From: a virus
DNA: 64,000 nt
Reading direction: 5' to 3' (one strand)
Virus record (IMG/VR): IMGVR_UViG_3300023117_002343
Location: 11,694 to 75,693 of that record
The translations under genes and the position numbers were made by a program. The notes under the pieces are model-generated. The model saw only the letters and a program-made list of their open reading frames with translations, did not search any database and was not told where the DNA came from. Shown here piece by piece: positions 33,906-52,742 of the stretch; positions within the stretch are counted from its first letter, which is position 1; every line of letters starts with the position of its first letter.

Positions 33906-34591
33906 TTCATCACCCGAGCAATTTTTTCGCACTTTTTAAATCTGTTTTCGATGACGTCCCAATTAAGTTCTCTCATCATGTTTTTGACGTAGCCTTCGAG
34001 GTTGGCAACGTAATCTCGATAGTAACAACCTTCACTGACGTCTATCACAATAACGGGGATGGCCGAAAAGGGCACACCAGCATCAGCAGTATCAACCACT
34101 AGATTAATGTAGCGCTGCAAGTAAATGCTGTAAGCCGTCACTGCATATCCATCCCGCGAGCTTTTGGCGCAGCCAATAAAGTCCTTTTGCCAATCGTCAA
34201 AGGTACCAAAGTCCCGTGCCAATCTCATATAACACAGCATGTCCATTGTAATAGAGCTGTTGAGATCGCTAATATTGTCCAGAAATTGACCCTGCAGAAA
34301 AGCGTCGTTGATTGCAAAGGACTCAGCAGTTTTGAGATTTCGAAACTTGCTGCTGACCTTATTGGCATTTTCGGGATCTGCACCTTCCAGTTCGGCGCTG
34401 ATCTTGTTGAGTTGTTCGACTGTGTTCTCAAAGTGCTTGATTCTGGCCGACTTGACTTTAGGAGACAGCTTTTCAGTGCTGAGCGAAAACTTTTTAGGCT
34501 CGACCACGTAAGCTTCATTGAGAGCTTGTCTCTTCGGAAGTACGTCGTCAATCGCCTTCAGTACATCATTTTTCAGGTTGGGTTTGCTCAT
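33902..34591 (-). CDS. Fe/Mn superoxide dismutase-fold protein lacking metal-ligand histidines
   Basis: RDFGTFDDWQKDF; PVIVIDVSEGCYYRDY (canonical DVWEHAYY); LNWDVIENRF. Confidence 0.8.
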   Translation of the reverse strand: MSKPNLKNDVLKAIDDVLPKRQALNEAYVVEPKKFSLSTEKLSPKVKSARIKHFENTVEQLNKISAELEGADPENANKVSSKFRNLKTAESFAINDAFLQGQFLDNISDLNSSITMDMLCYMRLARDFGTFDDWQKDFIGCAKSSRDGYAVTAYSIYLQRYINLVVDTADAGVPFSAIPVIVIDVSEGCYYRDYVANLEGYVKNMMRELNWDVIENRFKKCEKIARVMK

Positions 34592-34935
34592 TTGACTTCG
34601 TACTCCTTTTCAAATTCTTTGGCCGACACTGCCATCAGGTCTTCTTCGCTTTCCTCTTCTTCCGGCGCCGGAAAATAATAGAGTGACTCCAGGGAAGAAA
34701 CAGGATCGACCTCATAAAGCACTTTAGACTTTCTCTTGTCGGCCAAGACTGCTTCCTCGCCGGCCGGCTCAAATCTGGGCTTTTCTGGCGCTGCTAACAT
34801 GACCGTGATTTCTCCATCGGGTTCCTGTAGCACTTGATCGACTGTATATTCAAACTGCGAACCTTTGTGGCGGACTTTGAGACCCGGAGAAATAATGATA
34901 TTGCCGCGTTTGTCCTTAATGTCTGTTTCGTTCAT
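34588..34935 (-). CDS. Hypothetical protein
   Basis: MNETDIKD start overlapping the upstream stop. Confidence 0.6.
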   Translation of the reverse strand: MNETDIKDKRGNIIISPGLKVRHKGSQFEYTVDQVLQEPDGEITVMLAAPEKPRFEPAGEEAVLADKRKSKVLYEVDPVSSLESLYYFPAPEEEESEEDLMAVSAKEFEKEYEVK

Positions 34936-36476
34936 TTTAAACCTGCGAGTAATTGCCAACGTTGCAATCGTTTAGATTCAGAAATTATGCGTCCGTATTT
35001 TCTGTTCAAATATGAATGCACAATTTTTTCAATAGAAGCATAGGAATAATTTATTTTTCCTTCTTGTTTTTTCTTGGCAATATGATCAACTAGCTTCGGA
35101 ATAATCTTAATAAGATCATTTTGTAATTCTAGTGTGATTCCCATATTGGAACCCTTTCTTGATAGCATTTCTTTATGCGTTTTAAACCAGCTTACAATGG
35201 CTGCCTTAACTTTTTGTTCAATATTGTCTCGGTCCGAATCTTTTACAACTTTTTTCAAGCCATCTTCCAGATCGCTTACTATTTCGTCCGTCAAAGCATA
35301 TTGTCTAGTAAGAGGATCAGCACTATTTTTCCAACGAGTCAACATGTCTGATATGACGTCACCAATGGGTTCATCGAGTTTTGATGCTTCAACTGCTGAA
35401 TCTTTTAGTGCTTCTCTCGCTTTACTCTCAAGCTCTTGAGATTCTTGCTCAGATACTTCAGGTGTTTTGTCTGCATCTTCAGCTTTATCTTTTAATTCTT
35501 TTGCGGCTTCTTCGGCATCTTTAACTGCTTCTACAGATTCTTGAGCATCTTGTTTTTCAAGCTTAGGATTAAAAAACTTAGGATCCATTAAATTTTCAAT
35601 CTTAACTTTCATTAAAGCAGCGGCCATTTCTTCTGGCATTTTATCTATCTGTCTAGACTGCGCTTGAACTGGTGCCATTAATTGCTTTTGAAGCCCCGGT
35701 AATATTTTAATGTTCTTGAAAAAATTGAACATATTTTTAATTTTAGTGCCATCTATTTCTCTTCGAATATCAGCTGCTGCCTTTTTTTGTTCTTCTTCTG
35801 TATTTTTTCCAGCAAGATTAAAAATTTGTTCGATTGTTGAATCTTTACCAGTTTTTAAAGCTTTTAACGCTTCTTCAGATTGAGCATTTATGTTTCCCTG
35901 TTTGGCAGCATCTTCTGCTTTTTTTATTATCGGATTTAAAGATCGACCAACACGCTGCTGGAATGTTTTCATCCCATTGACAATGCCACCGGCGAATGTT
36001 TGAGATTTCAAAGCTAATTCGCTGGCTGCATTCACCAAAGGAATATAATCCCTAAATTTTTCGAAAGTTTTGCCAATTTGCGGCAATTTAACCCACTTGT
36101 TAAAACCATCAGAACTTGTATCTAATTTTTCTAACTTGGCCAATGTTGCATCGGTCTGTTGTTGCAATACTTCAAGATATTTTTGAACTTCCGGAACAGC
36201 ATCAAGAAACTCTTCAGGCGAAGATAATCCTTTATCAGCCTCAAAGTCATAAACTTTAAATTGTTTTAAATATTTTTCAACTGTTTCTAAATTTTTTGCT
36301 GCAGCATTTAAATTATCATTAACATTTTTAAAATCAGCTGCATCTAATTTTTCCACAAGCAAATATCGTATGGACATTTCGTGCAAGGATCGATCTGCAT
36401 ATTGCGGCAAAGATTGAATTTTGCGCAGCATGTCTAAGCTTTCTGCAATAATTTTATCATGATTCTTTAGTTGCAT
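34932..36476 (-). CDS. Helical L/I-x-E protein with a C-terminal RWQLLAGLK motif
   Basis: IAE, LHE, LVE and ISE sites; ATATTTA at 36504-36510. Confidence 0.65.
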   Translation of the reverse strand: MQLKNHDKIIAESLDMLRKIQSLPQYADRSLHEMSIRYLLVEKLDAADFKNVNDNLNAAAKNLETVEKYLKQFKVYDFEADKGLSSPEEFLDAVPEVQKYLEVLQQQTDATLAKLEKLDTSSDGFNKWVKLPQIGKTFEKFRDYIPLVNAASELALKSQTFAGGIVNGMKTFQQRVGRSLNPIIKKAEDAAKQGNINAQSEEALKALKTGKDSTIEQIFNLAGKNTEEEQKKAAADIRREIDGTKIKNMFNFFKNIKILPGLQKQLMAPVQAQSRQIDKMPEEMAAALMKVKIENLMDPKFFNPKLEKQDAQESVEAVKDAEEAAKELKDKAEDADKTPEVSEQESQELESKAREALKDSAVEASKLDEPIGDVISDMLTRWKNSADPLTRQYALTDEIVSDLEDGLKKVVKDSDRDNIEQKVKAAIVSWFKTHKEMLSRKGSNMGITLELQNDLIKIIPKLVDHIAKKKQEGKINYSYASIEKIVHSYLNRKYGRIISESKRLQRWQLLAGLK

Positions 36477-36521
36477 AGATTATAAGCCAGGTAAAGCTTT
36501 TACTAAATATGGCCTACTGAT

Positions 36522-36953
36522 TCAGTCTGAAGAATCTAATGACACTTTTCGAACCTGTCGTTTGGCTCTTGCAAGCATGTCCAAACCCGAAGTATCTCGA
36601 TAGGTCTCACAGTAGACGAGCTCGTCTATGCCGGCATTGATAATGGCCTTAGCACACATTTTGCACGGAGACAAGGTGACATACATTCGCTTTCTTTGCG
36701 GATTGTTATAGTCCATCTTGATCAGGGCATTGACCTCTGCGTGAATGCATCCACTCTGGCCGGGCTCTGCAGACTCAACTTCATTGGGTCCGCCGGCTTG
36801 ATCACCATTGTATCCCATAGCCAAGACCTGAGTGTTATCATTGGAAACCACCACAGCTCCAACTTTGTGTCTCTGGTCAATGCTTCTCTCGGCAATAGAC
36901 TGGGCAAAGCGCATCCAGATAGTGTCCCAATCGGGTCTTTTATTTATTCCCAT
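36522..36953 (-). CDS. dCMP deaminase
   Basis: KVGAVVV, GYNG, HAEVNA and SPCKMC. Confidence 0.92.
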   Translation of the reverse strand: MGINKRPDWDTIWMRFAQSIAERSIDQRHKVGAVVVSNDNTQVLAMGYNGDQAGGPNEVESAEPGQSGCIHAEVNALIKMDYNNPQRKRMYVTLSPCKMCAKAIINAGIDELVYCETYRDTSGLDMLARAKRQVRKVSLDSSD

Positions 36954-37789
36954 GGCCAAAACAACTTTTCTACGCTTTCTGATGGTCCCAAAGTAAACCC
37001 AGCAGCTTTTTTATGTCCACCGCCGCCAAAGCGCGCAGCAATTTTTGATACATCGACTTCGTTCTTTTGGGTTCTTAGGCTGACTTTATGCTTCATATTT
37101 TTGTGATCGTAGTACCAAATAACAACGAAATCACAAGTAGGAGCCAATTGAGATCCAATTTCGCTTTGTAAGATTGAGCTATTTACCACGCAAACTTCAT
37201 AGCTTCTCCATAAATTTTTTCGAGCACTTTGGCATATTTTCTTCATAACAATATTATTATAATGAAGAATAGTATAACCATCGCTCACAAGCTCCTCGAA
37301 CTGCGAGAGATTATTCATGGCATCAAACGACTCAAAAGTAAAGTCGATCAATGAGGTTAGCGCGGCAGACACAGCTTTACTGTCTTCCAGCTCAAAACGC
37401 CATAGGTCTCTGTCCTCAATATAACGCAAAAAAATCGGAGGATCTTCAGAGCCATGAAAGAATTGCCAGGACAATATTGCGCCACTTCTACTCATGTCTA
37501 ATTGAGCTTCAGGGATGCCGGCTAAATTTTCTTGGGCAGTTTTATGATGATCTAACACAATCAAAGAATTAGCTTTTTCTATCATTTTCTTAATATCATA
37601 ACGCGAATAAGAAAAATCCAGAATGGCTACATTTTTACCTGTAACATTTGGTATCGGATCGCCATAGGATGCCGGCAAATACTGAGCTCGATCGCCCAGA
37701 AGCTTCCAAGCGGCCCAAGCTGCACCGAATCCATCAGGACAATTTGCGTGATAAATAACTAGGTCGACGTCTTGCGGATTGGGTCTCAT
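36944..37789 (-). CDS. DHH/DHHA1 phosphoesterase
   Basis: YHANCPDG, LDHH, DRDLW and GGGGHKKAAG. Confidence 0.9.
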   Translation of the reverse strand: MRPNPQDVDLVIYHANCPDGFGAAWAAWKLLGDRAQYLPASYGDPIPNVTGKNVAILDFSYSRYDIKKMIEKANSLIVLDHHKTAQENLAGIPEAQLDMSRSGAILSWQFFHGSEDPPIFLRYIEDRDLWRFELEDSKAVSAALTSLIDFTFESFDAMNNLSQFEELVSDGYTILHYNNIVMKKICQSARKNLWRSYEVCVVNSSILQSEIGSQLAPTCDFVVIWYYDHKNMKHKVSLRTQKNEVDVSKIAARFGGGGHKKAAGFTLGPSESVEKLFWPWE

Positions 37790-37790
37790 G

Positions 37791-38333
37791 CTACCTCAAA
37801 AATGTTGTGTGCTGGTGGCATCTGGGCTCATATTTTTCTGAGCCTCCTACGTCAATGTAATTCAGACCTTCAACGCGAGCCACAGTGTAATAAGCATCAT
37901 GATAACACATGGTGCAAACTGCCGGACACACTTTGATCTCGGTGGCCCATGGCAGCATGGCTTGCACTTCCGGAAATACTTCGCCGCGAGCGGAAAGTTG
38001 AATGGTGGAGACGTATATGGACTTGCCCATCTTAAAAAGCGAAATGAGGGCCTCAGCCGAATCATCGATCATAAATGCTTCGTCGACTGCCACTACATCG
38101 CATTCCTGTGCTGCCTCAAAAATCTCGCGACCATTGGAAACCCCGATGGCCTCTGTAGCGTCTCCAGAATGGGTCACGATTGATTCGTCTGCATATCTAT
38201 GGTCTAACTTAGGTTTGAATGTCAGAACGTTTCTGGACTGGTATCCGGATCGATCTATAACGTTCAGCAGCTGACGAGACTTTCCTCCAAACATTGGTCC
38301 CGTGTAAATTACGAATTCTGGATTACTTTTCAT
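37791..38333 (-). CDS. tdk: Thymidine kinase
   Basis: GPMFGGKS, VDEA, C..C, VGGSEKYEPRC. Confidence 0.88.
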   Translation of the reverse strand: MKSNPEFVIYTGPMFGGKSRQLLNVIDRSGYQSRNVLTFKPKLDHRYADESIVTHSGDATEAIGVSNGREIFEAAQECDVVAVDEAFMIDDSAEALISLFKMGKSIYVSTIQLSARGEVFPEVQAMLPWATEIKVCPAVCTMCYHDAYYTVARVEGLNYIDVGGSEKYEPRCHQHTTFLR

Positions 38334-39363
38334 CACTTTCCTTTTGTGATTTTTTAGGCGTCAGTTCCCACCAGGCCAAAGTGGATTCCAGGCCAGTTTC
38401 AAAATCAGTCTGTGGCTTCCAGCTGGTCTCTTCTGTGATGGCCTCAATACTTGCCTTGGTGTGCTTGACATCGCCAGGTCTTTCAGGCGCATGTGTAATT
38501 TCAATGTCACCAAATCGATCTTTGAGCATTTGAAGGATCTGATTGTTAGACAGACTCTTGCCGTAGCCCACATTGTAGGCCGCAAAGTCGCCTGTGTCTT
38601 CTGATGCCACTGTCACCAGAGCGTTAACCACATCGCCTACGTAAACCATGTCTCTTGTCTGCTCACCGTCGCCATCAGAGCGCAGAGGTTGATTCTGTTT
38701 GAGCTTATCGCACCAGGCTGCTACGGCTGTAGCGTAGGGATTATTGCCATAACAGCCCGGACCGTACACGTTAAAAAATCTCAGTGCTGCACTTTTGAGT
38801 CCGTAGAGATCAGCAAACTGTTTTAAAAACATTTCAGAGCACAGTTTTTGTAGGCCATATGGGCTTCTGGGCTCTTTGTGAAAACTTTCTTCTGTGGCTA
38901 TTTCGTCTGGATGTGACGTAAAAGAGCCGTAAATTGCAGAAGAAGAAGCAAAGACGAACTTTTCAACTCCACTTTTTACAGCCATCTCTGCTAGGGCCAC
39001 CGTCTTAAAGAGGTTGGTGTCGGTGGAGACAGTGGGATTTTCGACTGAGTACTCAACGCGTGGATTGGCTGCAAGATGAAAGACGTGTGTATATCCTCCC
39101 TGCATGATGTGCTTAATAACGTCGGGATCTGACATGTCAGCTGTGATGACCAGAGTCTGATCGCTGCCCAGATTTTCGCGCGCAAAAAGTATGTCGACCA
39201 ATCCTGGTAAGACCGTTCGAGGCACCACGTCTTTTTCTATCAGGTTCTGAAGATAGCCTGAGCTCAAGTCATCAATAACTGTAACCTTCCAGCCTTCTTC
39301 CAATAGTTTTTTCACTAGGTGTGATCCAATAAAACCGCAACCCCCTGTCACTAGTGCTTTCAT
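38323..39363 (-). CDS. NAD-dependent nucleotide-sugar epimerase/dehydratase
   Basis: TGGCGFIG, HLAA, ASSSAIYG, YGLQK and RFFNVYGP. Confidence 0.92.
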   Translation of the reverse strand: MKALVTGGCGFIGSHLVKKLLEEGWKVTVIDDLSSGYLQNLIEKDVVPRTVLPGLVDILFARENLGSDQTLVITADMSDPDVIKHIMQGGYTHVFHLAANPRVEYSVENPTVSTDTNLFKTVALAEMAVKSGVEKFVFASSSAIYGSFTSHPDEIATEESFHKEPRSPYGLQKLCSEMFLKQFADLYGLKSAALRFFNVYGPGCYGNNPYATAVAAWCDKLKQNQPLRSDGDGEQTRDMVYVGDVVNALVTVASEDTGDFAAYNVGYGKSLSNNQILQMLKDRFGDIEITHAPERPGDVKHTKASIEAITEETSWKPQTDFETGLESTLAWWELTPKKSQKESDEK

Positions 39364-42300
39364 TAAGCAATTCTCCTTAGTTTTGTCACTGAGGTAGAGA
39401 AACCCCAGTTTGAATCATTTGATGCATGTGCCATCCAAAGTGAAAATCTTTCAGGCGGAACATTGTTTTCAAACTTACCCCATACACGTAACCAAGTCGC
39501 ATTATGTTCATTGTCAATTGCCCGAATCCGATAAAACGTTTTTCCATTTTTCGTTTTCTTTTGGATTACATCTTGCACACAAAACCAACCAATACCTGCG
39601 GTTCCTGATTGTATTTTATGCAAGGAACTCACATTTTTCTCACCAAGTCTGTTCATTAGCTTGCTTGAGAAAAGTAGTTCCGGATCAACTGATGACGTTA
39701 GATCAAATTGTAAATTTATTTTTTGAGTTCGAGTCCAATCTTCCAAATTGGCATATTTTTGTAATAACACATCTACAATTGGTTCAGGTTCTATTTCTTC
39801 TTTTGCCAATTTCTTAAGCTGTGTAGTGGTCTTTCCATATCGACCTTTTTTCAAAAGAACATAGTTGTTTTCATCAGTAAATGTATACAACAGCTGATTA
39901 TAGTTGATGTCACTTTGTTCAAAATCTTTAAGTGATGAAAGGGCTTCAATTTTGCACAGGGCTGATAGACATGTCTTGTTAATTTTAGACAATCTCCACT
40001 TGCCGTCTTCATTATAAAGAAAATCATCAATGCTGGCAAATGGGCGTAAATTCAAGATTTCATCTACGGCAGTCGCACCAATGCCTTTGACAGATGCAAG
40101 TGAAGGCACAAAAGCATCAATATCATCTGAAAATGCCCACTCTTTTTCGGAGTAATTAACATCAATTTGAGCAAATTCATAGCCCATTTTACGAATTTCG
40201 TTAATGACTTTTGTGAGTTTTTCCTGACTTCCACTCTCAGCCTGCAACACAGTGGACAACCAGTGTTTAGGATAATACGTTGACAACCAGGCACCGTAAT
40301 AAGATACGATTGCATAAGAAACAGCATGGCTCAAGTTAAAACCGTAAAGCGAGAAAAAAGCAATCTTGTCAAAAAGCTCTTGCGCTTTTCTTCTTTCCAG
40401 CCCGCTAACACTGACACAGCCCTCAACGAACTTCTTTTCCAGCTCTTCCTTTTCTTTAGCTTTCTTTCCTAGTGATGTCAGGTCTTTCTTCACAAGAGTT
40501 TTTCGCATCTTGTCCGAATCACCAGGTGAAAATCCTGCCAATTGCTGAGCCAAAAGCATGAATTGTTCCTGGAATGCGATAAAGCCGTATGTGGATCCCA
40601 GTACATTCTTGATTGCAGGATGATCGTATTTAATATTTTCTGCATCACGCTTAGCTTTTACGTACAACTTGTGAACGTTAGCCTTGAGTGGCCCGGGCCG
40701 ATAGATGGCTGTAATTGCCGCGAGGTCAGTAATGTTATCAGGTTGTGCCTCCAAGCAGAACTTTCGAGCACCAGGTGATGTAAACTGAAAAATGCCAGGC
40801 CAGTTACCGCCTTTGAAAACGTGATCAAAAACTTTTGAATCGCTTGGCTCAACATAACGACAATTTAGTTTTTCATCATAGAACTTTTTGATTTCTTCAA
40901 ACTGCGGTTCTTTGGAATTTTGACTCTTAAGAATGCGACGAATACAATCTTCGACCATCTTCATTTGAGACAGTCCTAAAAAGTCAAACTTTAGAAAACC
41001 ATTCTCTTCAAGGTTTCGGATGTTGACGCCCTCGGTCCAAGGTGTCTGTAGTTCACCACGAACCTTAATGAGCGGCATATGCTTTTCAAGCTCAGGACAG
41101 ATAAGCACACCACCCGCATGTCGACCAATCGATCGATTCATCATGAAAAGCTTTTTAACCTTATCCTCAACCTGAGGATATTTTTCCATGAAGTTTTGAT
41201 AGCGTTCTGAATACTTCATGCAATCTTCATGCTTCAGGACAAACATTGATTTTTCCATGTTTGGATCCTGTGCCCGGATTGAAACCTCGGCCTCCAGCGG
41301 ACCCGTCACCGCATTTACCTCACTAAAGGGAATTTGATATAACTTGCTAATGTCCTTTACCAGGGATTTGAGCTTTAAGGTGTTGAAGTTGGAAACCGGA
41401 ACCACAGCATCCTCACCAAAAATTTCCCTAGCGGCATTGATTAGCTCATCACGATCACCAACATCAGTATCGATGTCGGGCCACGATGCCTTTTGCTTAT
41501 TGAGAAATCTCTCAAACAGAAGGCCGTACTTAACGGGATCAACGTGTGTAATGCCTAGCAGATAGTTGACAAGGCTACCGGCGCCGGAACCTCGACCGGC
41601 ACCTGGAAGAGTTCGATTTTCGGCAAGCTTAAAAACCTTCTGAAGGGTCAAGAAGTAATCCGAAAAATTCAAGTACTTAATATCGCCAAGCTCCATCTTG
41701 GCTCGTTCAACATACTCAGGTTTTTCATGCAGTCCTTCGGCAACCAAACCGTCCTTGACCAATTGCGACAACTGTTGAAACGCGGTTTTCTTTTCATTGG
41801 TAAATCTTGGAAGTTTTGCAGTCGTATCAAACCAAACTTCATTACAAAGCTGCCAAGCAATATCATGACCGGTTTCGATTGACCGCCTGACAAGGTCTTC
41901 GGTTCCTTCGTACCAAGAAAATTCCTGCCGACGAAGAAGATACTCATCCCACATTTGTACTGCATTTTTTGGATACAGCTTTGCCTTTAGTTCATGTTCT
42001 AGCGGAACTTTTGGACCAGTGCCATCATCCTTAATGCGACCAGGCATTAATAGACGATAAACCTCACGTGCCTCCCATAGATCTGGCCCTGGAAAGTGTG
42101 AATCTGCTGTGGCCACCATTGGAATGCCTGTTTTCTTTGAGGTCTCAATGATGACTCGGTTAGTAAGATCCTGCGCGTTCATTGCATGAAACTGTGTTTC
42201 TAAAAAAAAGTTCTCACGTCCCACAGCATCAATAAACATGTCACAGGCGTTTTCAATCTTACCAACGCACTTTGACATGATTGCAGGATCATCAACCAAC

Positions 42301-42923
42301 GATGGGTGTAGTTGGTCAAATTTGAGACCAACAAATTCATCGTAAATGAGACCTGATGGGTATCCCCCCACGCATGCCGTTGATACAGCTAAGCCTTCGC
42401 CGTGTTGCTTAAGCATCTCAAAATCAATACGAGGAAAACGGAAAAAACCCTCAGCAAAGGAGCGTTTTACCAATGTAAAAAGATTTGCTAGGCCTACTTC
42501 ATTTTTTGCAATAACGACAAGGTGATACCTTCTATTGACATTGCTAACGGCAGCCTTGGTTCGTGTTTCATCTGCGTCTTCCAAAACCAACCCAGCGTCT
42601 TTATCACTTACACCTTTTTTGCTTTTGGCATCTTTTGACTCGGTGTATGCTATGCGCCAGTCCTTTAGTGAAGGCACAAAGTAAAATTCAACGCCATAAA
42701 TCTGTCGAAACTTTCTACCCTTTCCGGATAGCTTTTTCATGTGTGCATGAGCATGTGCCAAACCGTTACCGTTACCATGATCAGTCAGAGTCCAGCCATC
42801 CAGCTGATTCTTCAAGCAAAATTCAATATGCTCATGTGGTTGACCTAGGCCATCATAAGGAGAAAAAGTTGAATGACCATGAATAGAAACGAAACGATCA
42901 GGTGGACGTAAAATATGACTCAT
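39363..42923 (-). CDS. dnaE: DNA polymerase III alpha subunit with an intact PHP domain
   Basis: HGHSTFS..DG, TDHG, DSHF, GRGSGAGS, PDIDTD, HAGGV, KFDFLGL and YGFNLSHA. Start at the ATG after AAGGA. Confidence 0.96.
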   Translation of the reverse strand: MSHILRPPDRFVSIHGHSTFSPYDGLGQPHEHIEFCLKNQLDGWTLTDHGNGNGLAHAHAHMKKLSGKGRKFRQIYGVEFYFVPSLKDWRIAYTESKDAKSKKGVSDKDAGLVLEDADETRTKAAVSNVNRRYHLVVIAKNEVGLANLFTLVKRSFAEGFFRFPRIDFEMLKQHGEGLAVSTACVGGYPSGLIYDEFVGLKFDQLHPSLVDDPAIMSKCVGKIENACDMFIDAVGRENFFLETQFHAMNAQDLTNRVIIETSKKTGIPMVATADSHFPGPDLWEAREVYRLLMPGRIKDDGTGPKVPLEHELKAKLYPKNAVQMWDEYLLRRQEFSWYEGTEDLVRRSIETGHDIAWQLCNEVWFDTTAKLPRFTNEKKTAFQQLSQLVKDGLVAEGLHEKPEYVERAKMELGDIKYLNFSDYFLTLQKVFKLAENRTLPGAGRGSGAGSLVNYLLGITHVDPVKYGLLFERFLNKQKASWPDIDTDVGDRDELINAAREIFGEDAVVPVSNFNTLKLKSLVKDISKLYQIPFSEVNAVTGPLEAEVSIRAQDPNMEKSMFVLKHEDCMKYSERYQNFMEKYPQVEDKVKKLFMMNRSIGRHAGGVLICPELEKHMPLIKVRGELQTPWTEGVNIRNLEENGFLKFDFLGLSQMKMVEDCIRRILKSQNSKEPQFEEIKKFYDEKLNCRYVEPSDSKVFDHVFKGGNWPGIFQFTSPGARKFCLEAQPDNITDLAAITAIYRPGPLKANVHKLYVKAKRDAENIKYDHPAIKNVLGSTYGFIAFQEQFMLLAQQLAGFSPGDSDKMRKTLVKKDLTSLGKKAKEKEELEKKFVEGCVSVSGLERRKAQELFDKIAFFSLYGFNLSHAVSYAIVSYYGAWLSTYYPKHWLSTVLQAESGSQEKLTKVINEIRKMGYEFAQIDVNYSEKEWAFSDDIDAFVPSLASVKGIGATAVDEILNLRPFASIDDFLYNEDGKWRLSKINKTCLSALCKIEALSSLKDFEQSDINYNQLLYTFTDENNYVLLKKGRYGKTTTQLKKLAKEEIEPEPIVDVLLQKYANLEDWTRTQKINLQFDLTSSVDPELLFSSKLMNRLGEKNVSSLHKIQSGTAGIGWFCVQDVIQKKTKNGKTFYRIRAIDNEHNATWLRVWGKFENNVPPERFSLWMAHASNDSNWGFSTSVTKLRRIA

Positions 42924-42935
42924 GATATAATCCTT

Positions 42936-42976
42936 AAAAAAGTGTGCCTCCACAATTATATCATCATGGAGGCACA
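42936..42976 (-). terminator. Intrinsic terminator-like hairpin whose loop contains the dnaE -10 box
   Basis: TGTGCCTCCA-N14-TGGAGGCACA followed by CTTTTTT on the minus strand. Confidence 0.6.
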
Positions 42977-42983
42977 TTTACAC
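42955..42983 (-). promoter_or_regulatory. sigma70-like promoter GTGTAA-N17-TATAAT for dnaE
   Basis: Recurrent motif. Confidence 0.7.
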
Positions 42984-43013
42984 GTTTTTAATGGATGAAA
43001 ACGTGATGATTTT

Positions 43014-43472
43014 TTACTCGATGCTGTCAGAGTAAGGCTCTAGGAGCATCTCACCGGCTTCATGACAACGATCCAAGTAATCTTCCAACTGCTCAAAAGT
43101 CGTGCAAACCTTGACACCGCTTCTTGCCAGCATCAAATTGAATGGTGCTCCCTTTGGGAGACCCGCGCAAAAGTAAATAATGGCCTTATCAAATGCCGTG
43201 GCATAACCGCATTCCATGATAGTGCCAAGATCTTTATCACGGGTATTGACAACCAAAAAGTCAGCTTCTCGAATGTGCTTTAGGTTTCCTTGGTAGGTCG
43301 CATCCTGCACATCTTTTGGCGCATTTGGTGGACATACAAAAATTCTACGTGGGGAAGCCAGCTCAACCCAAGAATCACGCTCATCCAAGATCTGCTCAAG
43401 GCGATCAAGTTCGGCGGCCTGCGTGGGGTTAAACCAGCCGGCTGCCAAATAACACTTCTTTCTATCACTCAT
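43014..43472 (-). CDS. Nucleoside 2-deoxyribosyltransferase / nucleotide N-glycosidase family protein
   Basis: YLAAGWF, D.GT..ECGYA and NLML. Confidence 0.8.
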   Translation of the reverse strand: MSDRKKCYLAAGWFNPTQAAELDRLEQILDERDSWVELASPRRIFVCPPNAPKDVQDATYQGNLKHIREADFLVVNTRDKDLGTIMECGYATAFDKAIIYFCAGLPKGAPFNLMLARSGVKVCTTFEQLEDYLDRCHEAGEMLLEPYSDSIE

Positions 43473-43473
43473 A

Positions 43474-43995
43474 TTATTTCTCCAAAAATTGCTTAATATC
43501 GGAAAGCTCTCTTTCCAGATTTTCGTCATCAACATTCATAACCAAAACATCACACTTTGACCACTCGGCAAACTCGAGATAGCGTTCATGAATTTTTTCA
43601 ATATTATCATTAATCGCCTCATATTCATCACTCGAGTTTTCGTAATTTGATCGTACCGGTATTATTATTTTTGTCCCTAATCGTGCATGGCGTGAATCCA
43701 GTTCTCGTAAAACTTCAAAATCCACTTTTCGACCAAGCACAGAACCGTAAATCCACTCGGACGGCCATGCACGATCTAGAATAACTGAGGCACCTGATTG
43801 CTCTAAAAATGAAGTAAAATAGGTGTCGACATATCTGACAGCATGCAAAAAATAAGAAGGATCCTGTAAAAAGTATCGATGCTCATCACAATTTTTGAAA
43901 TACGGAATTTCAAGCTCATTTGCAAGTGCCTGAGACATTTGTGTTTTTCCACAACCATCAGGTCCATCAAAAATAATCACATGCTGTTTTGTCAT
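43474..43995 (-). CDS. Thymidylate-kinase-like P-loop NMP kinase
   Basis: DGPDGCGKT and ILDRAWPSEWIYG. Confidence 0.8.
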   Translation of the reverse strand: MTKQHVIIFDGPDGCGKTQMSQALANELEIPYFKNCDEHRYFLQDPSYFLHAVRYVDTYFTSFLEQSGASVILDRAWPSEWIYGSVLGRKVDFEVLRELDSRHARLGTKIIIPVRSNYENSSDEYEAINDNIEKIHERYLEFAEWSKCDVLVMNVDDENLERELSDIKQFLEK

Positions 43996-44919
43996 TTACT
44001 TGAAGCCAACTTTTCGGAGTCGACCCTCATATCCAATAGTACGCCAATCCTTAATCATTTCCTTTTCACCTGAAAACAAAAGATTTTCAGGAAGTTCTTG
44101 TAACTCCAGATACCATGCCGACTTATCAAACTTCCAATCAGCAGGATTCTCATCATTAACCGATGACGGAATATGAGCACCAGCACTAGGAGCACGACCT
44201 GTATTACCGAACACCTTGTCAACGTTCAGGCATACATTGTCATTTCCCATAGCGTCCAACTTCGTCATCAGGTGTGACCATCCGGACCCCTTAATCTTGT
44301 CGGTACCATCCTCATTGAGATGAGCTCGACGAAGCTCACGATGAATCAGGCGACCAATATAGTTCAGCTCATCAGTCAGGCCATTCTCACAACGACGAGC
44401 AAAATATCCTCGCAAGGCCATGAAATTTACAACACAAACCAAGTTTGTGTGCTGGCCATGTAGTGTCAGATAACGACAGTCTTGGGGAGGAACACCAGCA
44501 TCGACCATATCATCATACAATGACTGGGACATTTCCGCCAATTGATTAGCGCGGTCACCAAACTCAGATTGATAAATGTTCTTAGGAACTGTTACAGCAT
44601 GCTCAATTCTTTCAGGCATTTGTGAAGTTACCACATAAGCCCAACCAACACGACCTCGAGTAAACTGCGCCAAACCGACACGACTAATTCCCTCAATTCT
44701 AACTTGAAACTGAAGTGCTTCCTGCGGAATTGGAAGAGCACGCGCGGCAATTACATCCATTGCCGCCTGAATATGCTCAGGATTATCAGGATCATACTCG
44801 TCATTGCGAAGAGAATACCATGTCTCACGAAACCATTCCCAAAACATTTTGAATGGCATGGGGTTGCCCTGCTCAAGCAGAGTTACATTAATGTGTTGAA
44901 AACCGTTAAAAGTGCTCAT
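43996..44919 (-). CDS. Divergent ThyX-like flavin-dependent thymidylate synthase
   Basis: EALQFQVRIEGISRV..QFTRGR.......TSQ, GVPPQDCRYL and NF..L..Y..RRC. Confidence 0.75.
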   Translation of the reverse strand: MSTFNGFQHINVTLLEQGNPMPFKMFWEWFRETWYSLRNDEYDPDNPEHIQAAMDVIAARALPIPQEALQFQVRIEGISRVGLAQFTRGRVGWAYVVTSQMPERIEHAVTVPKNIYQSEFGDRANQLAEMSQSLYDDMVDAGVPPQDCRYLTLHGQHTNLVCVVNFMALRGYFARRCENGLTDELNYIGRLIHRELRRAHLNEDGTDKIKGSGWSHLMTKLDAMGNDNVCLNVDKVFGNTGRAPSAGAHIPSSVNDENPADWKFDKSAWYLELQELPENLLFSGEKEMIKDWRTIGYEGRLRKVGFK

Positions 44920-44961
44920 TTCTACTCCTTTGTGTGAGCCTCAGAATACCCTTGAATAATA

Positions 44962-45137
44962 TTACTGGGTGCGAAGATGTTCAATAAGTTTATCTGTCGC
45001 ATTACGCAATCCACTACGATTAAATTCTGTGTCACCGATTTGCAACCAGATATCCTCAAGAAATGAATCCATTTCAACTCGATACTGTTGCATGTCTTCG
45101 TAGGAAATTTTTGTCAATTCTGCGGTTGGATTATCAA
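44962..45137 (-). CDS. Possible small protein (start unclear)
   Basis: Open frame fills an otherwise empty gap in the operon. Confidence 0.3.
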
Positions 45138-46081
45138 GCAGTCTTAGTACTTGTCTCGATATTTTTGACGAGTGTTGTAATGTTGCCTGTCTCCCAGTCA
45201 AACATTTGAATACCTTCATAGCCCTTGACTCCTTGATTATATGAACGTGAGGGAACAAGACATGTTACACCATGCATCGCGTATTCTGCTGCATGTTTAG
45301 GTGAATCATCAATAGCACAAACAACTTTACCTTGTTTGTATGCATCGAGTGAGGCCACGGCAATATACTTTTCTGAGCTCAGTTGAACCGAATCAAACTC
45401 ACCCACATAGGTTTCGAGCCATTCATAGGTTTCATTCATACACTTGAGCTCAGACGCAGGACGTGCCGTTAAAATGTGAATCCAGTAACCTTCATCTCGA
45501 AGGCGACCTAGATTACTAACAACGTTTTGACATGTGTCAAGTTTTCTAACTTCTCCCGAATCGATAAACTCCTGCAATAGTTCATCGCCGGCTTTACCAG
45601 CAATCGGTTTGCTCAGAAAATACTCGGAAGAAGTATGATCGACATTTTCATCATAAGTTCGATTGACCCATTCATAAAAATTTTGCCTGAATCTCGCTAG
45701 AACATCATCGACATCAACTACCACTACGGGTTGCCCTTGCCATTTTGACCAATTCTTCTTAGACCGAACATTTAGATGAGAGTCTCTAGACGCAAACGCC
45801 TGCAAGGCATCGTTCTCATCGTAACCCCATAGATTAAGAATCGCTAGACAATATCGATAAACGTCCATTGTTTCAAACAGAATATTCTGCCTGTGTGTAG
45901 GGGTAAAAGTCTGGCGATGACCCCTGTAGTCAACAGCATCAGCTAGTTTCGCCACTTCTCCATGCATTGCCAAACACAGTGTCTTGTGCTTTTCTATTTT
46001 TTCCAACTCTGACATCTCAGCCGCATCATAGAAAATTCTGGCAAACTGTGCCTGTTTTTCCAAAAGTTCTTTCAATGTCAT
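45134..46081 (-). CDS. All-alpha NTP pyrophosphatase (MazG/dUTPase-like) fused to a HAD 5'-nucleotidase-like domain
   Basis: N-term HGEV...ETMDV; C-term DVDDVL, ILTARP and IDDSP. Confidence 0.75.
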   Translation of the reverse strand: MTLKELLEKQAQFARIFYDAAEMSELEKIEKHKTLCLAMHGEVAKLADAVDYRGHRQTFTPTHRQNILFETMDVYRYCLAILNLWGYDENDALQAFASRDSHLNVRSKKNWSKWQGQPVVVVDVDDVLARFRQNFYEWVNRTYDENVDHTSSEYFLSKPIAGKAGDELLQEFIDSGEVRKLDTCQNVVSNLGRLRDEGYWIHILTARPASELKCMNETYEWLETYVGEFDSVQLSSEKYIAVASLDAYKQGKVVCAIDDSPKHAAEYAMHGVTCLVPSRSYNQGVKGYEGIQMFDWETGNITTLVKNIETSTKTA

Positions 46082-46086
46082 ATCTT

Positions 46087-46311
46087 TTACTTTGGGTTGT
46101 TTACAAGATAGCTGATGTGATCGAGAATTTCCTCGACCTGATCATCGCCACATTCCTTGTAGGATTGCCCCATTTTCTCCTTGACACTACGCCAAATATG
46201 CGCATAGGGATTTCTTGAGGAATGTTCTGGGTGAGGAGGTAAATTTCCATCCAGGGCTTTACCCCCTAGGGCAACGGCTTCACGAATTTTCTGCATATTT
46301 TCAGGCGACAC
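46087..46311 (-). CDS. Small conserved hypothetical protein
   Basis: LPPHPEH..RNPYAH motif. Confidence 0.6.
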   Translation of the reverse strand: MSPENMQKIREAVALGGKALDGNLPPHPEHSSRNPYAHIWRSVKEKMGQSYKECGDDQVEEILDHISYLVNNPK

Positions 46312-46676
46312 TAATAGCCTCCATTGATCCTGCCTAAGTTGACTTGACCCTTTTTCATGTAGGCTTCAAATATTTCTTCGACAGAAATACCTGAATAGAT
46401 CAAAATCCCTACAAGGTAATGAAGTACATCGCTCAATTCTTCCATATAAGAATCACGATCAAAGTCTTTAAACTCTGTGGTTCGATGCTTTTTGGAATTC
46501 TTAAGCAGCATATTTGACTCAAAAAGCTCATGCATACATTCATGAGAAAGGTGCTTTAAAAACTGTTGGTTTTCCTTCTCAGCAAGATCTAAGGGGAAAT
46601 CTGGATGATCCCTTTTATCTCGTAAGAGCTCCAAGAAATCTTGTTGCTGTTTATACATTTGCTCAAATTTGTCCAC
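46311..46676 (-). CDS. Dimeric dUTPase/MazG-like NTP pyrophosphatase
   Basis: HELFE...KKH...EELSDV.HY...AY.KK..VN..R. Confidence 0.75.
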   Translation of the reverse strand: MDKFEQMYKQQQDFLELLRDKRDHPDFPLDLAEKENQQFLKHLSHECMHELFESNMLLKNSKKHRTTEFKDFDRDSYMEELSDVLHYLVGILIYSGISVEEIFEAYMKKGQVNLGRINGGY

Positions 46677-46678
46677 AA

Positions 46679-46879
46679 CTACTCTCCTGGTGCTACTTCA
46701 TCTTGCATTTTTACAAGGTTTTTTTCAAAGTTCTCGACGTAATCCGGATCCAAATCAAGAACGCCATCGTTCTCAACAAATTGAACCATGCGAATATTAT
46801 CAGAAATATCGGTACCCGTCAAAATCGCAAGTTGCAAAAGCTTTACCAGTTGTGCAATACTATTATCAGAAAGTCTCAT
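46679..46879 (-). CDS. Small hypothetical protein
   Basis: GGAGG RBS. Confidence 0.65.
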   Translation of the reverse strand: MRLSDNSIAQLVKLLQLAILTGTDISDNIRMVQFVENDGVLDLDPDYVENFEKNLVKMQDEVAPGE

Positions 46880-46926
46880 ATTTTCCTCCAGGTTTGATTC
46901 AATTTTATTAGTTTTATTGATTTTGT

Positions 46927-47724
46927 TCAGCGCTGAATTTGTGGAACCCAGTGCGTGGAACGGCCGTCTCCAGCATCCTCTTTAACCACTTCGTGGCCGT
47001 GAGGATCTGTCTTTCTTCCGTAAACCTGGAAGAAGTCTACCGCTTTGGCGTCTCCCTCAGGTGCACGATAATTCCTAATTGAAGCGCCTTGTCTTTCGTA
47101 ACTTTCTTTAAGAACATTTTCTATGGCCTCCTTGAGGTTTTTCATGTCTTCTGTCGACAGAGATCCGACCAATCGGTACGGCGACAGTCGAGCTCGATAT
47201 AGAGCTTCAGCTTTCACATAATTGCCAACACCGCATATAACACTCTGATCCATGATCGCTTTGGTCACGGTCCAGTGTTGCTTGACATCGAGTGCAGCAT
47301 TAAACCTTTCACTCGACACATCTTCGCTCAGCATGTCTGGACCCAAACTGTTGAGCTTATCAAAAAATGCTTTTTTGGTCCGAATAACTTTCAGCGTGCC
47401 AAAATTTCTGATGTCAGAGAAGAATACTGGCGGGCCTGAGTCAAAATTAAACTTGACGCGATTGTGCTTGTTGCTCGAGTCAAGAGTCCAATGTCCAGTC
47501 ATTCCCAGGGTATTCAACAGAAACTGGTCATTTTCCAGGATCCAAAATATGAGCTTGCCCTTGACGCCCACTCCAACAACTTTGGTCGGCTCAAACATTT
47601 CTATGCCTGTAATAGGCTTTTTGCAATATCTGCCAGAAATGGGCTGAATAGACAGGCATCTTCTAATACCAACCATTTGAGCCAATGACTCCCCAATCAG
47701 TTTTACTTCTGCTCCCTCTGGCAA
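46927..47724 (-). CDS. Fpg/Nei DNA glycosylase with a zincless finger
   Basis: MPEGAEV, KGK, LGMTG, DIRNFG, GVGNY and GRSTHWVP. Confidence 0.92.
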   Translation of the reverse strand: MPEGAEVKLIGESLAQMVGIRRCLSIQPISGRYCKKPITGIEMFEPTKVVGVGVKGKLIFWILENDQFLLNTLGMTGHWTLDSSNKHNRVKFNFDSGPPVFFSDIRNFGTLKVIRTKKAFFDKLNSLGPDMLSEDVSSERFNAALDVKQHWTVTKAIMDQSVICGVGNYVKAEALYRARLSPYRLVGSLSTEDMKNLKEAIENVLKESYERQGASIRNYRAPEGDAKAVDFFQVYGRKTDPHGHEVVKEDAGDGRSTHWVPQIQR

Positions 47725-47726
47725 TT

Positions 47727-48314
47727 TTATTCCTCCCTGTTTACGCTTTTTTCAGTTTCAAATCCATTGGGGTATCTCTTGCGTAATTTTTCTACATTTA
47801 CATGCATTGCAATGGCCATTCCGCCTTCACGCCCAGACTGAATAGGACCGTGAATCTTTTTCAGAATATGCACGATATCTTTGATGACATTAGAAATACC
47901 ATGACAAATTAGAGCTGGATTAAGTTTATGTCCGTGACCTACAACTTTTTTGACATGCTCGGTTACTTCCTTGGCATTTCGGATGATCCTGAATTTTTTT
48001 CTGAAGGATGCTGCGCAAGAATTGTTGTAATTGTCAATGTTGCCATAACTTTGCCACATGTGAAAAGGCACATCAAGCACATCCATGATTCGCGCAGCAT
48101 ACCATAGAACGTCACCAGCCTCTTTTGTCACTAAATCTATAGTATCAGCCAGGCTAATTTCGTTACGAGGATCGTAAATCTGGTCTACACAATCAATAAA
48201 TTCCGCACACTCGCCTATGAGGCCCAGAGCCAAAATGGCTAGATCGTCAGTAGCCGATGTTTCTCGGGTGATTTTTTGATATTCGTCGTAGGTGTATCTT
48301 TTAATGCCTGACAT
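47727..48314 (-). CDS. MazG-like NTP pyrophosphohydrolase (internal duplication)
   Basis: LGLIGECAE..KEAGDVLWY; NVEKLRKRYP.GF. Confidence 0.8.
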   Translation of the reverse strand: MSGIKRYTYDEYQKITRETSATDDLAILALGLIGECAEFIDCVDQIYDPRNEISLADTIDLVTKEAGDVLWYAARIMDVLDVPFHMWQSYGNIDNYNNSCAASFRKKFRIIRNAKEVTEHVKKVVGHGHKLNPALICHGISNVIKDIVHILKKIHGPIQSGREGGMAIAMHVNVEKLRKRYPNGFETEKSVNREE

Positions 48315-49664
48315 CTAAGCAACCTCCTTTTTGAGTAGTGTTTTAAGATCAGTTTCGTACATTTTTTCAGGTGTGGTCTTTTTTGTAGCTTCGAGCTCTG
48401 CCACTTTCGCTTTTTTGATCTTTCTGAGTTCTTCAGCTTTTTCTTTGGTGAGAGAGTGAATGGCCATATTGAGCAAATAGTTGTAACTGCCAGATTCTCG
48501 ATCGAAGTTCATCGCCTTGAGATCCCCTTCGATGGCTTTTTTGGGTCGATTGTTGATGACCAACCGGCCGGCAAGAATCTCTTCAATGAATTGGGCTTTA
48601 TTGTCTGCAACTCTTAGCTCCTTTTCCAGTCTTTTGATGTTGTTCTTTTTACGTAGATTATAGTATTTCAGCCTGAAATTAACAAAATATTCTACGATTT
48701 CTTCTGGCTTCTCAAATATCTTAAGCTTGCCGTGCTCGTCAAGCGTTGTGTAGTTCTCTCCGATTCGCTCTTTGATCTTAAGCAGCGCCGGAAGGCGGTT
48801 TCTCTTGACCATCTTGGCCAGATCTGCACGCTTAAATTTCAGAATGTAGTGTGGTGTCTCAGACGAGTGATCGTCGTAAGAGACTAAATCGCCCTTTTCA
48901 ATTAGTTTTTCCAGGAGCGCTTCGTATTTTTCGTAGGTGAATCCCGGCGGAATTTCGGTGACTTCAACTGTCGAAGTATTTTTGACGCGAAAATTGCCGC
49001 TCATGATCCAGGATTTTGGATTATCGGTAGCTCTCTCAAACTGGCCTGTGAAGCCATTGATCCAAGGCTTGATTTCCGGGCACTCTTTTCCTTTAAGAAC
49101 CGATAGACACGCCTTGATGAGATCGACAGGGTGACGATTGAGAATATTGGTGGCAAAGCCCACTGCGATACCGCTTCCACCGTTTAACAAGACTGTCGGA
49201 ATAATAGGCAGAAAAAACCTAGGCTCGATCTTTTCGCCTTCTTCTTCCTGAGACTCACACAAGTCAAAGTCTTGATAGAGCTGTCGAAAGTTTTCGTTAA
49301 ATTTGACGCCAACATAGCGAGGAGCTCCAGCTTCCGGAGATCGCAGCGAGCCAAACTGGCCAATGCCTTGAAATATAGGCATGGAGTTTTTGAAATTCTG
49401 AGTCATGCCGATGATAGTGGCATCCAGAGAGCCATGATGAAACATGGTCATGCTGGCAGCCAGGCCGCCAAGCTGAAAGACCTTCATAGGCTTTTCTTTG
49501 CCAGTCTTCCAAACTTGATTGGCCGTGTGAGCAATTTTTCGCTGTGAAGGCTTAAAGCCGTCGATCAAGCTCGGTATGGCTCGGTTTTCCACTGTGTACA
49601 GCGCATAGTCTCTTAGCTCCCTATCAAAAAAGTCTGAGACTGTTCTTTCGGCAACTTTATCCAT
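48315..49664 (-). CDS. Type IIA topoisomerase breakage-reunion subunit (T4 gp52-like)
   Basis: RAIPS.IDGFKPSQRK, HHG, APRY and GIAVGFAT. Confidence 0.93.
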   Translation of the reverse strand: MDKVAERTVSDFFDRELRDYALYTVENRAIPSLIDGFKPSQRKIAHTANQVWKTGKEKPMKVFQLGGLAASMTMFHHGSLDATIIGMTQNFKNSMPIFQGIGQFGSLRSPEAGAPRYVGVKFNENFRQLYQDFDLCESQEEEGEKIEPRFFLPIIPTVLLNGGSGIAVGFATNILNRHPVDLIKACLSVLKGKECPEIKPWINGFTGQFERATDNPKSWIMSGNFRVKNTSTVEVTEIPPGFTYEKYEALLEKLIEKGDLVSYDDHSSETPHYILKFKRADLAKMVKRNRLPALLKIKERIGENYTTLDEHGKLKIFEKPEEIVEYFVNFRLKYYNLRKKNNIKRLEKELRVADNKAQFIEEILAGRLVINNRPKKAIEGDLKAMNFDRESGSYNYLLNMAIHSLTKEKAEELRKIKKAKVAELEATKKTTPEKMYETDLKTLLKKEVA

Positions 49665-51513: not shown

Positions 51514-51555
51514 TATTTTTTCGCCAACTAGACCATGCATGTATATCGGTTATAT

Positions 51556-52694: not shown

Positions 52695-52713
52695 AATGGC
52701 TCCTTTTGAGTTC

Positions 52714-52742
52714 ATTATATCATGAAGAAGCCGGCCTTACAC
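52714..52742 (-). promoter_or_regulatory. sigma70-like promoter GTGTAA-N17-TATAAT
   Basis: Recurrent motif. Confidence 0.7.

Follow-up and report, generated by a model that had tools for sequence, protein, structure and literature searches.

Phages that replace a pyrimidine in their DNA, such as the T-even phages and SPO1, rely on a ThyA-family dCMP or dUMP hydroxymethylase, a deoxynucleoside monophosphate (dNMP) kinase, a dCTPase/dUTPase or dTTPase, a dCMP deaminase and sometimes a dTMP nucleotidase. In nucleoside antibiotic biosynthesis, MilA/MilB and BcmA/BcmB combine a ThyA-like CMP hydroxymethylase with a nucleotide N-glycosidase of the nucleoside 2-deoxyribosyltransferase (NDT) superfamily, which frees the base. 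To our knowledge, every phage pyrimidine-replacement pathway starts from a ThyA-family enzyme. Thymidine hypermodification pathways likewise start from one (PMC8989533), and PolB of polyoxin biosynthesis is a neofunctionalized ThyX paralogue that acts as a UMP/dUMP C5-methylase (PMC5954106). Here we describe a gene cassette centered on a rewired ThyX-fold paralogue, designated ThyXL, in a 64,000-nucleotide stretch of viral DNA (the window; bases 11694-75693 of the 75,693-bp IMG/VR record IMGVR_UViG_3300023117_002343, which is ~20% complete according to CheckV). The source is a fragment of an uncultured giant (jumbo), myovirus-like phage. A preliminary description of the window had reported a co-oriented run of twelve named genes at 36522-48314, and Pfam, PHROG and NCBIfam assignments bear this out: all twelve are present on the minus strand, mostly overlapping or abutting.

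ThyXL (43996..44919, minus strand) is a 307-aa protein whose PF02511 (Thy1) match scores 61.8 bits against a cut-off of 24.8 and covers only residues 47-199; it carries a conserved C-terminal extension of ~100 aa. On the ThyX equivalog TIGR02170 it scores 35 bits, below the cut-off of 87.9, and its protein-atlas annotation is simply "ThyX." Using an AlphaFold (AF2) model (pLDDT 95), every top Foldseek match was a ThyX, with E values of ~1e-8 to the Mycobacterium tuberculosis and Thermotoga maritima enzymes and TM scores of 0.6-0.73 normalized to the target, while sequence-only Protein Data Bank (PDB) searches with ThyXL, its partner kinase and the neighboring fusion protein returned just repeat or P-loop noise. 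The active-site region of ThyXL does not have the ThyX signature RHRx7-8SxRY and reads TRGR-VGWAYVVT-SQMP, a motif that is invariant across its family. The nearest canonical relatives, found by a scan of 1.84 billion representatives, read RHRIGWSYSVQSQRY (RHR-x8-SQRY), compared to RGRVGWAYVVTSQMP (RGR-x8-SQMP) for the same stretch in ThyXL. Both have an IGWSYSV-type spacer. Their scaffolds are nearly the same, and ThyXL departs from these relatives precisely at the positions of His79, Arg90 and Tyr91 (T. maritima numbering). The region around His53, the folate-stacking histidine, reads ALPxPxE in ThyXL versus HxSxxEH in the nearest canonical relatives.

These substitutions leave the nucleotide site in place. 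For comparison across viruses, we considered 16 related viral loci on contigs of up to 318 kb (tier 1) and 22 more distant viral loci (tier 2), in which ThyXL is ~320 aa long with the motif TR[ED]xG..F.SES. Counterparts of Gln75, Arg78, Ser88, Arg147 and Arg174 are retained in ThyXL across all tiers; R88, S99, R149 and R176 of ThyXL correspond to T. maritima R78, S88, R147 and R174 and are invariant or nearly so in both tiers. Of the residues that are altered, we take His53, His79 and, in tier 2, Arg80 to be FAD/folate-binding residues of canonical ThyX. Work on ThyX has established that Arg174 activates dUMP and that Ser88, Arg90 and Tyr91 help in the transfer step from the flavin carbinolamine; mutation to alanine slows the enzyme strongly in each case (S88A, R90A and Y91A), by more than 100-fold for Y91A (PMC8316439).

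The ThyXL family comprises at least 142 metagenome clusters (90% identity clustering) of proteins of ~300 aa that share 45-99% identity. The motifs SRV.LAQ.TRGR.G, SQMP, PPQD.RY and R.ENGLTDELN are invariant, and so is the motif D.VFGNTGR.PS in the C-terminal extension, its GNTGR element being replaced in tier 2 by YN.DF. The family is under strong constraint. No member was found in 185,579 species genomes; all are viral or metagenome sequences, and the distribution therefore offers no clue to the host. A maximum-likelihood tree, which is unrooted such that the position of the root is not fixed, separates canonical-motif from rewired proteins at a branch with SH-aLRT support of 98, and within the rewired side the tier-1 family and tier 2 form a clade with support of 99. 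Further rewired ThyX-like groups of 270-380 aa, with RTR...GGRDN...QWEIN and RAR...GW(K/R)DN...EQEDTVA motifs, make up a sister clade of 44 representatives, all of which lack the two histidines of canonical ThyX and one of which contains an intein.

At 11 kb from the window, the same genome encodes a second, normal ThyX (L003:775-1533; 164 bits), which reads RHRTWSYNEISRRY. Canonical ThyX (129-165 bits) and ThyXL occur together in G000-G004 and G010, where G000 is this genome, and a complete 300-kb phage carries ThyXL, canonical ThyX and thymidine kinase (TK). ThyA (PF00303) gave no match in G000-G004 or G006-G010. In complete 53-kb carriers of the cassette we found no canonical ThyX, ThyA or TK, leaving ThyXL as the sole ThyX-type gene. 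What had been described as a divergent ThyX is thus a conserved, rewired paralogue in a genome that has a canonical ThyX elsewhere, and it does not reach the ThyX equivalog score. Neighbors of the canonical gene (L003:775-2973 region) are a truncated, 345-aa protein resembling glutamine synthetase (Gln-synt_C, 74 bits) and a NUDIX hydrolase, with a tail-sheath-like gene of 1095 aa adjacent.

The constant partner of ThyXL is Kin (43474..43995, minus strand; 173 aa), a P-loop kinase of the thymidylate kinase (TMK)/deoxynucleoside kinase (dNK) fold with the P-loop DGPDGCGKT and an LDRxW..E..YS motif; its length is 171-186 aa in all tier-1 loci. Thymidylate kinase is its best PDB sequence match (E=7e-4), but Kin falls below the dTMP-kinase threshold (TIGR00041, 29 bits versus 83), and in Foldseek searches with its AF2 model (pLDDT 91.5) TMK ranks level with deoxynucleoside kinases and SPbeta YorR. 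Searches of cultured phages with tblastn gave no match to Kin, and hence none to the known 5-hydroxymethyldeoxyuridine (5-hmdU) DNA kinase phages, if those are in the cultured-phage collection.

The adjoining NDT gene (43014..43535, minus strand; PF05014, 51.4 bits versus a cut-off of 28.8) probably starts at an internal methionine, giving a protein of ~152 aa. Its family profile matches NDT (6evs, 1.5e-16) and PTD (1s2d, 1.9e-8) well ahead of DNPH1 (E 0.1-0.8). Of the two activities first offered for this gene, NDT or N-glycosidase, the profile thus favors the former, and the protein is best read as a nucleoside base-exchanger of the transferase type and not as a nucleotide glycosidase. Its invariant residues are a Y, two Ds, the E of GTI.E.G, the N of FN.ML and a C-terminal Y, whose catalytic roles are presumably those of their counterparts in Lactobacillus NDT structures. 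In some relatives the NDT frame is ~400 aa (G003:C1:97745-98062; L008:12156-13364; L012:13019-14191), with an extra N-terminal segment that is apparently fused to it or precedes it.

On the other side of ThyXL lies a 315-aa fusion (45134..46081, minus strand) of an N-terminal dimeric-dUTPase-like all-alpha NTP pyrophosphatase and a C-terminal NT5C-type haloacid dehalogenase (HAD) 5'-deoxynucleotidase. The HAD half of the previously proposed MazG-HAD fusion stands (NT5C, PF06941, 33.8 bits versus 24.8), with DxDxV, T, K and DD motifs that are intact and invariant in 10 homologues. The MazG half does not: it matches dUTPase_2 at 17.2 bits, below threshold, and is a paralogue of the family of the nearby 121-aa pyrophosphatase (hhalign, 95.6%). 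As with Kin, tblastn found no match to the fusion in cultured phages. The 121-aa protein itself (46311..46676, minus strand) is a dUTPase_2/DCTPP-like all-alpha pyrophosphatase (PF08761, 25 bits, cut-off 22.9; phrog_12184, 56 bits) with ExFE, EExxD and K..R...GY motifs and ~30% identity to actinophage genes annotated as dUTPase or dCTP pyrophosphatase, and is probably the phage's dUTPase or dCTPase. No trimeric dUTPase was found in G001, a 93%-complete relative, and the 121-aa protein may therefore be the only dUTPase of the phage. Between the two pyrophosphatase genes lies a 74-aa open reading frame (ORF; 46087..46311, minus strand) with no Pfam or PHROG match but with homologues in the same position in five related loci.

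This arrangement is not due to chance, as the same gene order recurs in related viral contigs. In tier 1 it runs Fpg, 121-aa pyrophosphatase, 74-aa ORF, fusion, ThyXL, kinase, NDT, DnaE, epimerase, TK, DHH phosphoesterase, deaminase. The kinase lies ~1.1 kb or less downstream of ThyXL in 15/15 loci in which that flank is present, and NDT adjoins ThyXL in 13 of the 16 loci; the 121-aa pyrophosphatase is found in 11/16, the fusion in 10/16 and Fpg in 8/16. In tier 2, NDT adjoins ThyXL in all 22 loci, often abutting it, and a YfbR-type HD 5'-deoxynucleotidase is likewise present in 22/22, standalone in 10 and fused to a trimeric dUTPase in 12. In those 12 loci the HD(YfbR)-trimeric dUTPase fusion sits between ThyXL and a Kin-homologous kinase, the slot that the dimeric-dUTPase-like-HAD fusion occupies in the window, and so represents a non-homologous replacement of it. 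Such a swap in the same slot indicates selection for the combined activity, and is the strongest sign that pyrophosphatase plus nucleotidase belongs to the cassette.

Altogether, we count 38 viral loci with the cassette, and these represent three or more replication backbones (DnaE, PolB-like/D5 and primpol/D5). Tier-2 carriers have as their other replication genes an ATP ligase, an SNF2 helicase and primpol-D5, or a PolB-like protein, and include complete 53-kb genomes (38% GC) with the order NDT, ThyXL, HD-dUTPase, kinase. The core of the cassette is therefore a mobile, virus-only set of four parts: NDT, ThyXL, a deoxynucleoside triphosphate (dNTP) pyrophosphatase with a 5'-nucleotidase, and a TMK/dNK-fold kinase. 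The preliminary description had taken the pathway to be built around DnaE. Elsewhere, though, the cassette adjoins PolB-like or primase-polymerase genes, and because it sits on these other backbones DnaE is a neighbor and not an organizer. Comparison of gene neighborhoods thus upholds a four-part core within the original run and assigns DnaE, the epimerase, Fpg and a 195-aa MazG to its neighbors and accessories.

How does this cassette compare with described systems? ThyXL has the fold of ThyX, or flavin-dependent thymidylate synthase (T. maritima TM0449, M. tuberculosis ThyX, PBCV-1 A674R), and keeps its nucleotide-site residues, but differs from it in having RGR..SQMP for RHR..S.RY, a replaced His53 region and an added, conserved 100-aa C-terminal extension, in falling under the equivalog cut-off, in co-existing with canonical ThyX and in being confined to viral and metagenome sequences. 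Like the T-even and SPO1 pathways, the cassette brings together a thymidylate synthase (TS)-like enzyme, a dedicated kinase and a pyrophosphatase/nucleotidase acting on the competing dNTP, with a deaminase and TK nearby. The proposal that a ThyX variant is linked to its own kinase, pyrophosphatase/nucleotidase fusion and NDT is confirmed across deep divergence, and this is the logic of base replacement. The cassette nevertheless falls outside the T4/SPO1 pathway because it has no ThyA-family enzyme (no PF00303). Its TS-like enzyme is of the ThyX fold, a canonical TS persists alongside it, and there is no general link to a DNA glycosyltransferase; we also know of no T-even or SPO1 pathway in which NDT is a constant member. 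The cassette also shares with MilA/MilB and BcmA/BcmB the pairing of a TS-like enzyme and a member of the PF05014 superfamily, although here the latter resembles nucleoside transferases by score and the former has the ThyX fold. PolB provides a precedent for recruiting a second ThyX copy for a non-standard C5-modified pyrimidine nucleotide (PMC5954106); we liken the two by description only, as PolB, a bacterial enzyme from an antibiotic gene cluster, has remained a methylase, whereas ThyXL, with its rewired motif, is viral and occurs in a DNA-precursor context. We found no description of a ThyX-fold route or of this cassette in the literature on phage DNA modification and jumbo phages (including PMC8989533 and PMC7824862).

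We place at about 0.5 the probability that the cassette serves pre-replicative synthesis of a non-canonical pyrimidine dNTP. In this scheme, the deaminase and the dUTPase-type pyrophosphatases would deliver a pyrimidine dNMP, most likely dUMP. ThyXL, with its nucleotide-activating residues kept and the Arg-Tyr pair that completes methylene transfer gone, would turn this dNMP into a non-thymine, C5-altered pyrimidine dNMP. The nearest chemistry would be a stalled methylene transfer, or capture of water to give a hydroxymethyl product, and a product of the hydroxymethyl type would be chemically closest. The dedicated kinase would then move the product toward the triphosphate for the phage polymerase, the pyrophosphatase-nucleotidase fusion would strip the competing canonical dNTP to the nucleoside, and NDT (together with TK in jumbo phages) would recycle the freed deoxyribose onto the wanted base. 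As the canonical ThyX elsewhere in the genome still makes dTMP, any replacement would be partial or of another base.

Several observations weigh against this scheme. All of the cassette activities can also be read as dTTP salvage, and in the small complete phages the combination of ThyXL as sole ThyX-type gene, a dUTPase and a TMK-like kinase gives the classic order dUTPase, TS, TMK. The presence of canonical ThyX and TK speaks against full replacement of thymine. The loss of H53 and H79, and in tier 2 also of R80, would put flavin binding, and with it the enzyme status of ThyXL, in doubt. Judging from its modeled fold, Kin may be a nucleoside kinase rather than a nucleoside monophosphate kinase. 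Finally, a partial Pfam scan of the complete 53-kb carrier G006 revealed no follow-on hypermodification genes.

The main alternative is an elaborate but ordinary route of dTTP supply or pool rebalancing, in which ThyXL is a divergent, working thymidylate synthase. Here, the nucleotidase would produce nucleosides from surplus host dNMPs, NDT would shift deoxyribose to thymine or uracil, TK or Kin would re-phosphorylate, the dUTPase would supply dUMP, and Kin would be a dTMP or deoxynucleoside kinase. This would account for the complete 53-kb phages, whose only TS-like gene is ThyXL in the order NDT, ThyXL, HD-dUTPase, kinase and one of which (G006) revealed no modification-tailoring genes in that Pfam scan; it also agrees with a transferase-type NDT, a kinase fold that ties TMK with dNK, and a retained ThyX nucleotide site. 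It is harder to reconcile with ThyXL itself, which lies far under the ThyX equivalog cut-off (35 versus 87.9 bits) and lacks H53 and H79, R80 as well in tier 2, and both Arg90 and Tyr91, for which the R90A and Y91A mutants lose much of their rate (PMC8316439). Nor does simple redundancy explain why canonical ThyX is kept in the jumbo phages of two deeply separated ThyXL groups. We consider this alternative rather unlikely.

ThyXL might also not be a C1-transferase at all, being instead a nucleotide-binding regulatory or scaffolding subunit of a phage complex for dNTP synthesis or an enzyme of unrelated chemistry, or the cassette could act in counter-defense, where it would remove or convert nucleotides that host defense systems produce or deplete and would leave the phage DNA unaltered. 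Consistent with the former, the residues that are invariant across tiers are mainly those of the nucleotide site while those assigned to FAD and folate vary, and the C-terminal motifs differ between tiers. Many family-specific residues are strongly conserved, however, including acidic and Arg residues near the former active site, and the pairing of ThyXL with catalytic partners (kinase, NDT, nucleotidase) is constant, which suggests a flow of substrate. With regard to counter-defense, the cassette moves between unrelated phages, which is common for accessory counter-defense genes, but no likeness to defense or counter-defense families turned up, although no search was aimed at them (PADLOC was not run). 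Taken together, we regard this group of explanations as improbable.

A further possibility, nested within the synthesis of a non-canonical pyrimidine, is that the modified pyrimidine is additionally sugar-linked (a glycosylated hydroxymethyl-pyrimidine), with the epimerase of the run providing an NDP-sugar and a glycosyltransferase (GT) encoded elsewhere in the genome. Members of the jumbo lineage share the epimerase in synteny, and GTs adjoin the cassette in two lineages: in G009 (L039) two DXD glycosyltransferases directly follow it, and in G001 a sub-threshold GT2-like gene, next to one resembling a homing endonuclease, is situated between DnaE and the epimerase. Each of these contexts is limited to one lineage. 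G001 and G002 also have GT1 and GT2 genes, but these lie more than 100 kb from the cassette and are equally compatible with glycan synthesis. As first described, the window has no glycosyltransferase, and the whole 75.7-kb record (~20% complete) likewise contains none of PF00535, PF00534 or PF04488, a search that did not cover the T4 alpha- and beta-GT families. For G006, a partial inventory of Pfam families covering 38 ORFs contains neither a GT nor an epimerase. Because GTs adjoin the cassette in only two lineages and the record has none, the sugar-linked base envisaged in the preliminary description appears very unlikely here. A phage with uracil DNA is unlikely as well, since dUTPase-type enzymes, ThyX and TK are all present.

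The remaining genes of the run, all on the minus strand, differ in how far they travel with the cassette. The deaminase, DHH phosphoesterase, TK and epimerase are lineage-level neighbors, DnaE is merely adjacent, and Fpg recurs in the jumbo lineage alone. A ComEB-like dCMP deaminase (36522..36959; PF00383, 83 bits) that supplies dUMP and an NrnA/RecJ-like DHH/DHHA1 phosphoesterase (36944..37789; phrog_4771, 264 bits; DHHA1, 34 bits) are syntenic in L006, L019 and G001; the latter probably recycles oligonucleotides to mononucleotides. The TK1-type thymidine kinase (37791..38336; PF00265, 113 bits) occurs in jumbo relatives and was not found in complete 53-67 kb cassette phages. The NAD-dependent NDP-sugar epimerase/dehydratase, a GalE-like short-chain dehydrogenase/reductase (38323..39363; PF01370, 180 bits), is below every NCBIfam equivalog cut-off. 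It is syntenic in L006, L007, L012, L019 and G001, that is, in the jumbo lineage only; near tier-2 cassettes blastp found no match to it, and no epimerase family is listed for G006.

The DnaE-type DNA polymerase III alpha (39363..42977) has PHP, DNA_pol3_alpha, finger and HHH_6 domains. Its gene is split into two to four pieces in the ORF maps of L007, L008 and L018, which fits inteins or homing-endonuclease insertions, and in G001 a NUMOD3/TnsA-like gene and a DUF7487 gene are inserted around the epimerase (L051:8800-9639 and 6941-7807). This module seems to be a preferred site of insertion for mobile elements. At the other end of the run, the Fpg/Nei DNA glycosylase/AP lyase (46927..47724) starts with (M)PEG and has H2TH (65.6 bits) and N-terminal (53.4 bits) domains, scores 141.5 bits on TIGR00577 against a cut-off of 203.3, and has no Cys in its C-terminal 40 residues. 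As the four zinc-finger cysteines are absent, a "zincless finger" is possible. No blastp match to Fpg was found in tier-2 loci. A gene resembling superoxide dismutase (33902-34591) lies near Fpg/Nei, a hint of an oxidative-damage theme. The last gene of the run encodes a 195-aa MazG-like pyrophosphatase (47727..48314; PF03819, 22.5 bits, marginal against a cut-off of 22; phrog_229, 78 bits). None of the 16 related loci contains a homologue of it (0/16), and it is a strain-specific accessory. The idea that three pyrophosphatases act as one system is accordingly rejected, as the MazG has no counterpart in these loci and the 121-aa enzyme may be a plain dUTPase.

Nearly all predicted genes of the record are on the minus strand. 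Within the run, only two gaps exceed 200 nt, 44920-45133 upstream of ThyXL and 46677-46926 upstream of the 121-aa pyrophosphatase, and these may hold internal promoters; relatives lack a homologue of the 98-aa ORF at 44962-45258, which is unlikely to be a real gene. Upstream of the run are topoisomerase II subunits, two pentapeptide-repeat proteins, ClpP, ribonucleotide reductase, DnaB, FEN, RecA, gp32 and PolA, and because these replication and ribonucleotide reductase genes sit there, we assign the run to a large module for replication and nucleotide metabolism. The tandem pentapeptide-repeat proteins (187 and 199 aa; 51556-52715, minus strand; PF00805, 147 and 204 bits) lie directly upstream of GyrB-like and GyrA/ParC-like topoisomerase II genes (48315-51540), a placement that recalls, by analogy, DNA-mimic gyrase regulators of the Qnr/MfpA type. 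Megablast of the region against cultured phages returned no match, and DnaE and the sheath reach only 24-31% identity to cultured-phage proteins, DnaE about 30% and the sheath about 27%. As these searches, and the tblastn searches with the kinase and fusion, came back empty, there is no cultured relative from which to borrow biology.

The complete 53-kb carrier G006 (L052-L054) has features of its own. It contains a 9-kb ORF of ~3,000 aa at about 34678-43764 (minus strand); N4-like phages have a comparably large ORF for their virion RNA polymerase. A 634-aa ORF without a Pfam match lies beside its primase-helicase, and no DNA polymerase family is among the 25 that were listed from a scan of 38 ORFs.

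The ThyXL family is abundant, with its many 90%-identity clusters joined by several sister groups that have other rewired motifs. We tentatively propose, at somewhat less than even odds, that the rewired side of the ThyX tree represents a large virus-only radiation of pyrimidine-nucleotide-tailoring enzymes, the ThyX-fold counterpart of the ThyA-family hydroxymethylases, and that the cassette is a complete pre-replicative pathway installing an undescribed pyrimidine in many uncultured aquatic phages, from 53-kb to jumbo. Should ThyXL prove to be an ordinary synthase, ThyX would be able to work without residues that are now thought to be catalytic. If the proposal is correct, a ThyX-fold starting enzyme and its partners would constitute a second, independent route to modified DNA, pointing either to a DNA base not described before or to a different way of making a known one. 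Such a route would bear on the evasion of restriction and CRISPR, could bias the sequencing of environmental viromes, and would provide new enzymes for the synthesis of modified nucleotides.

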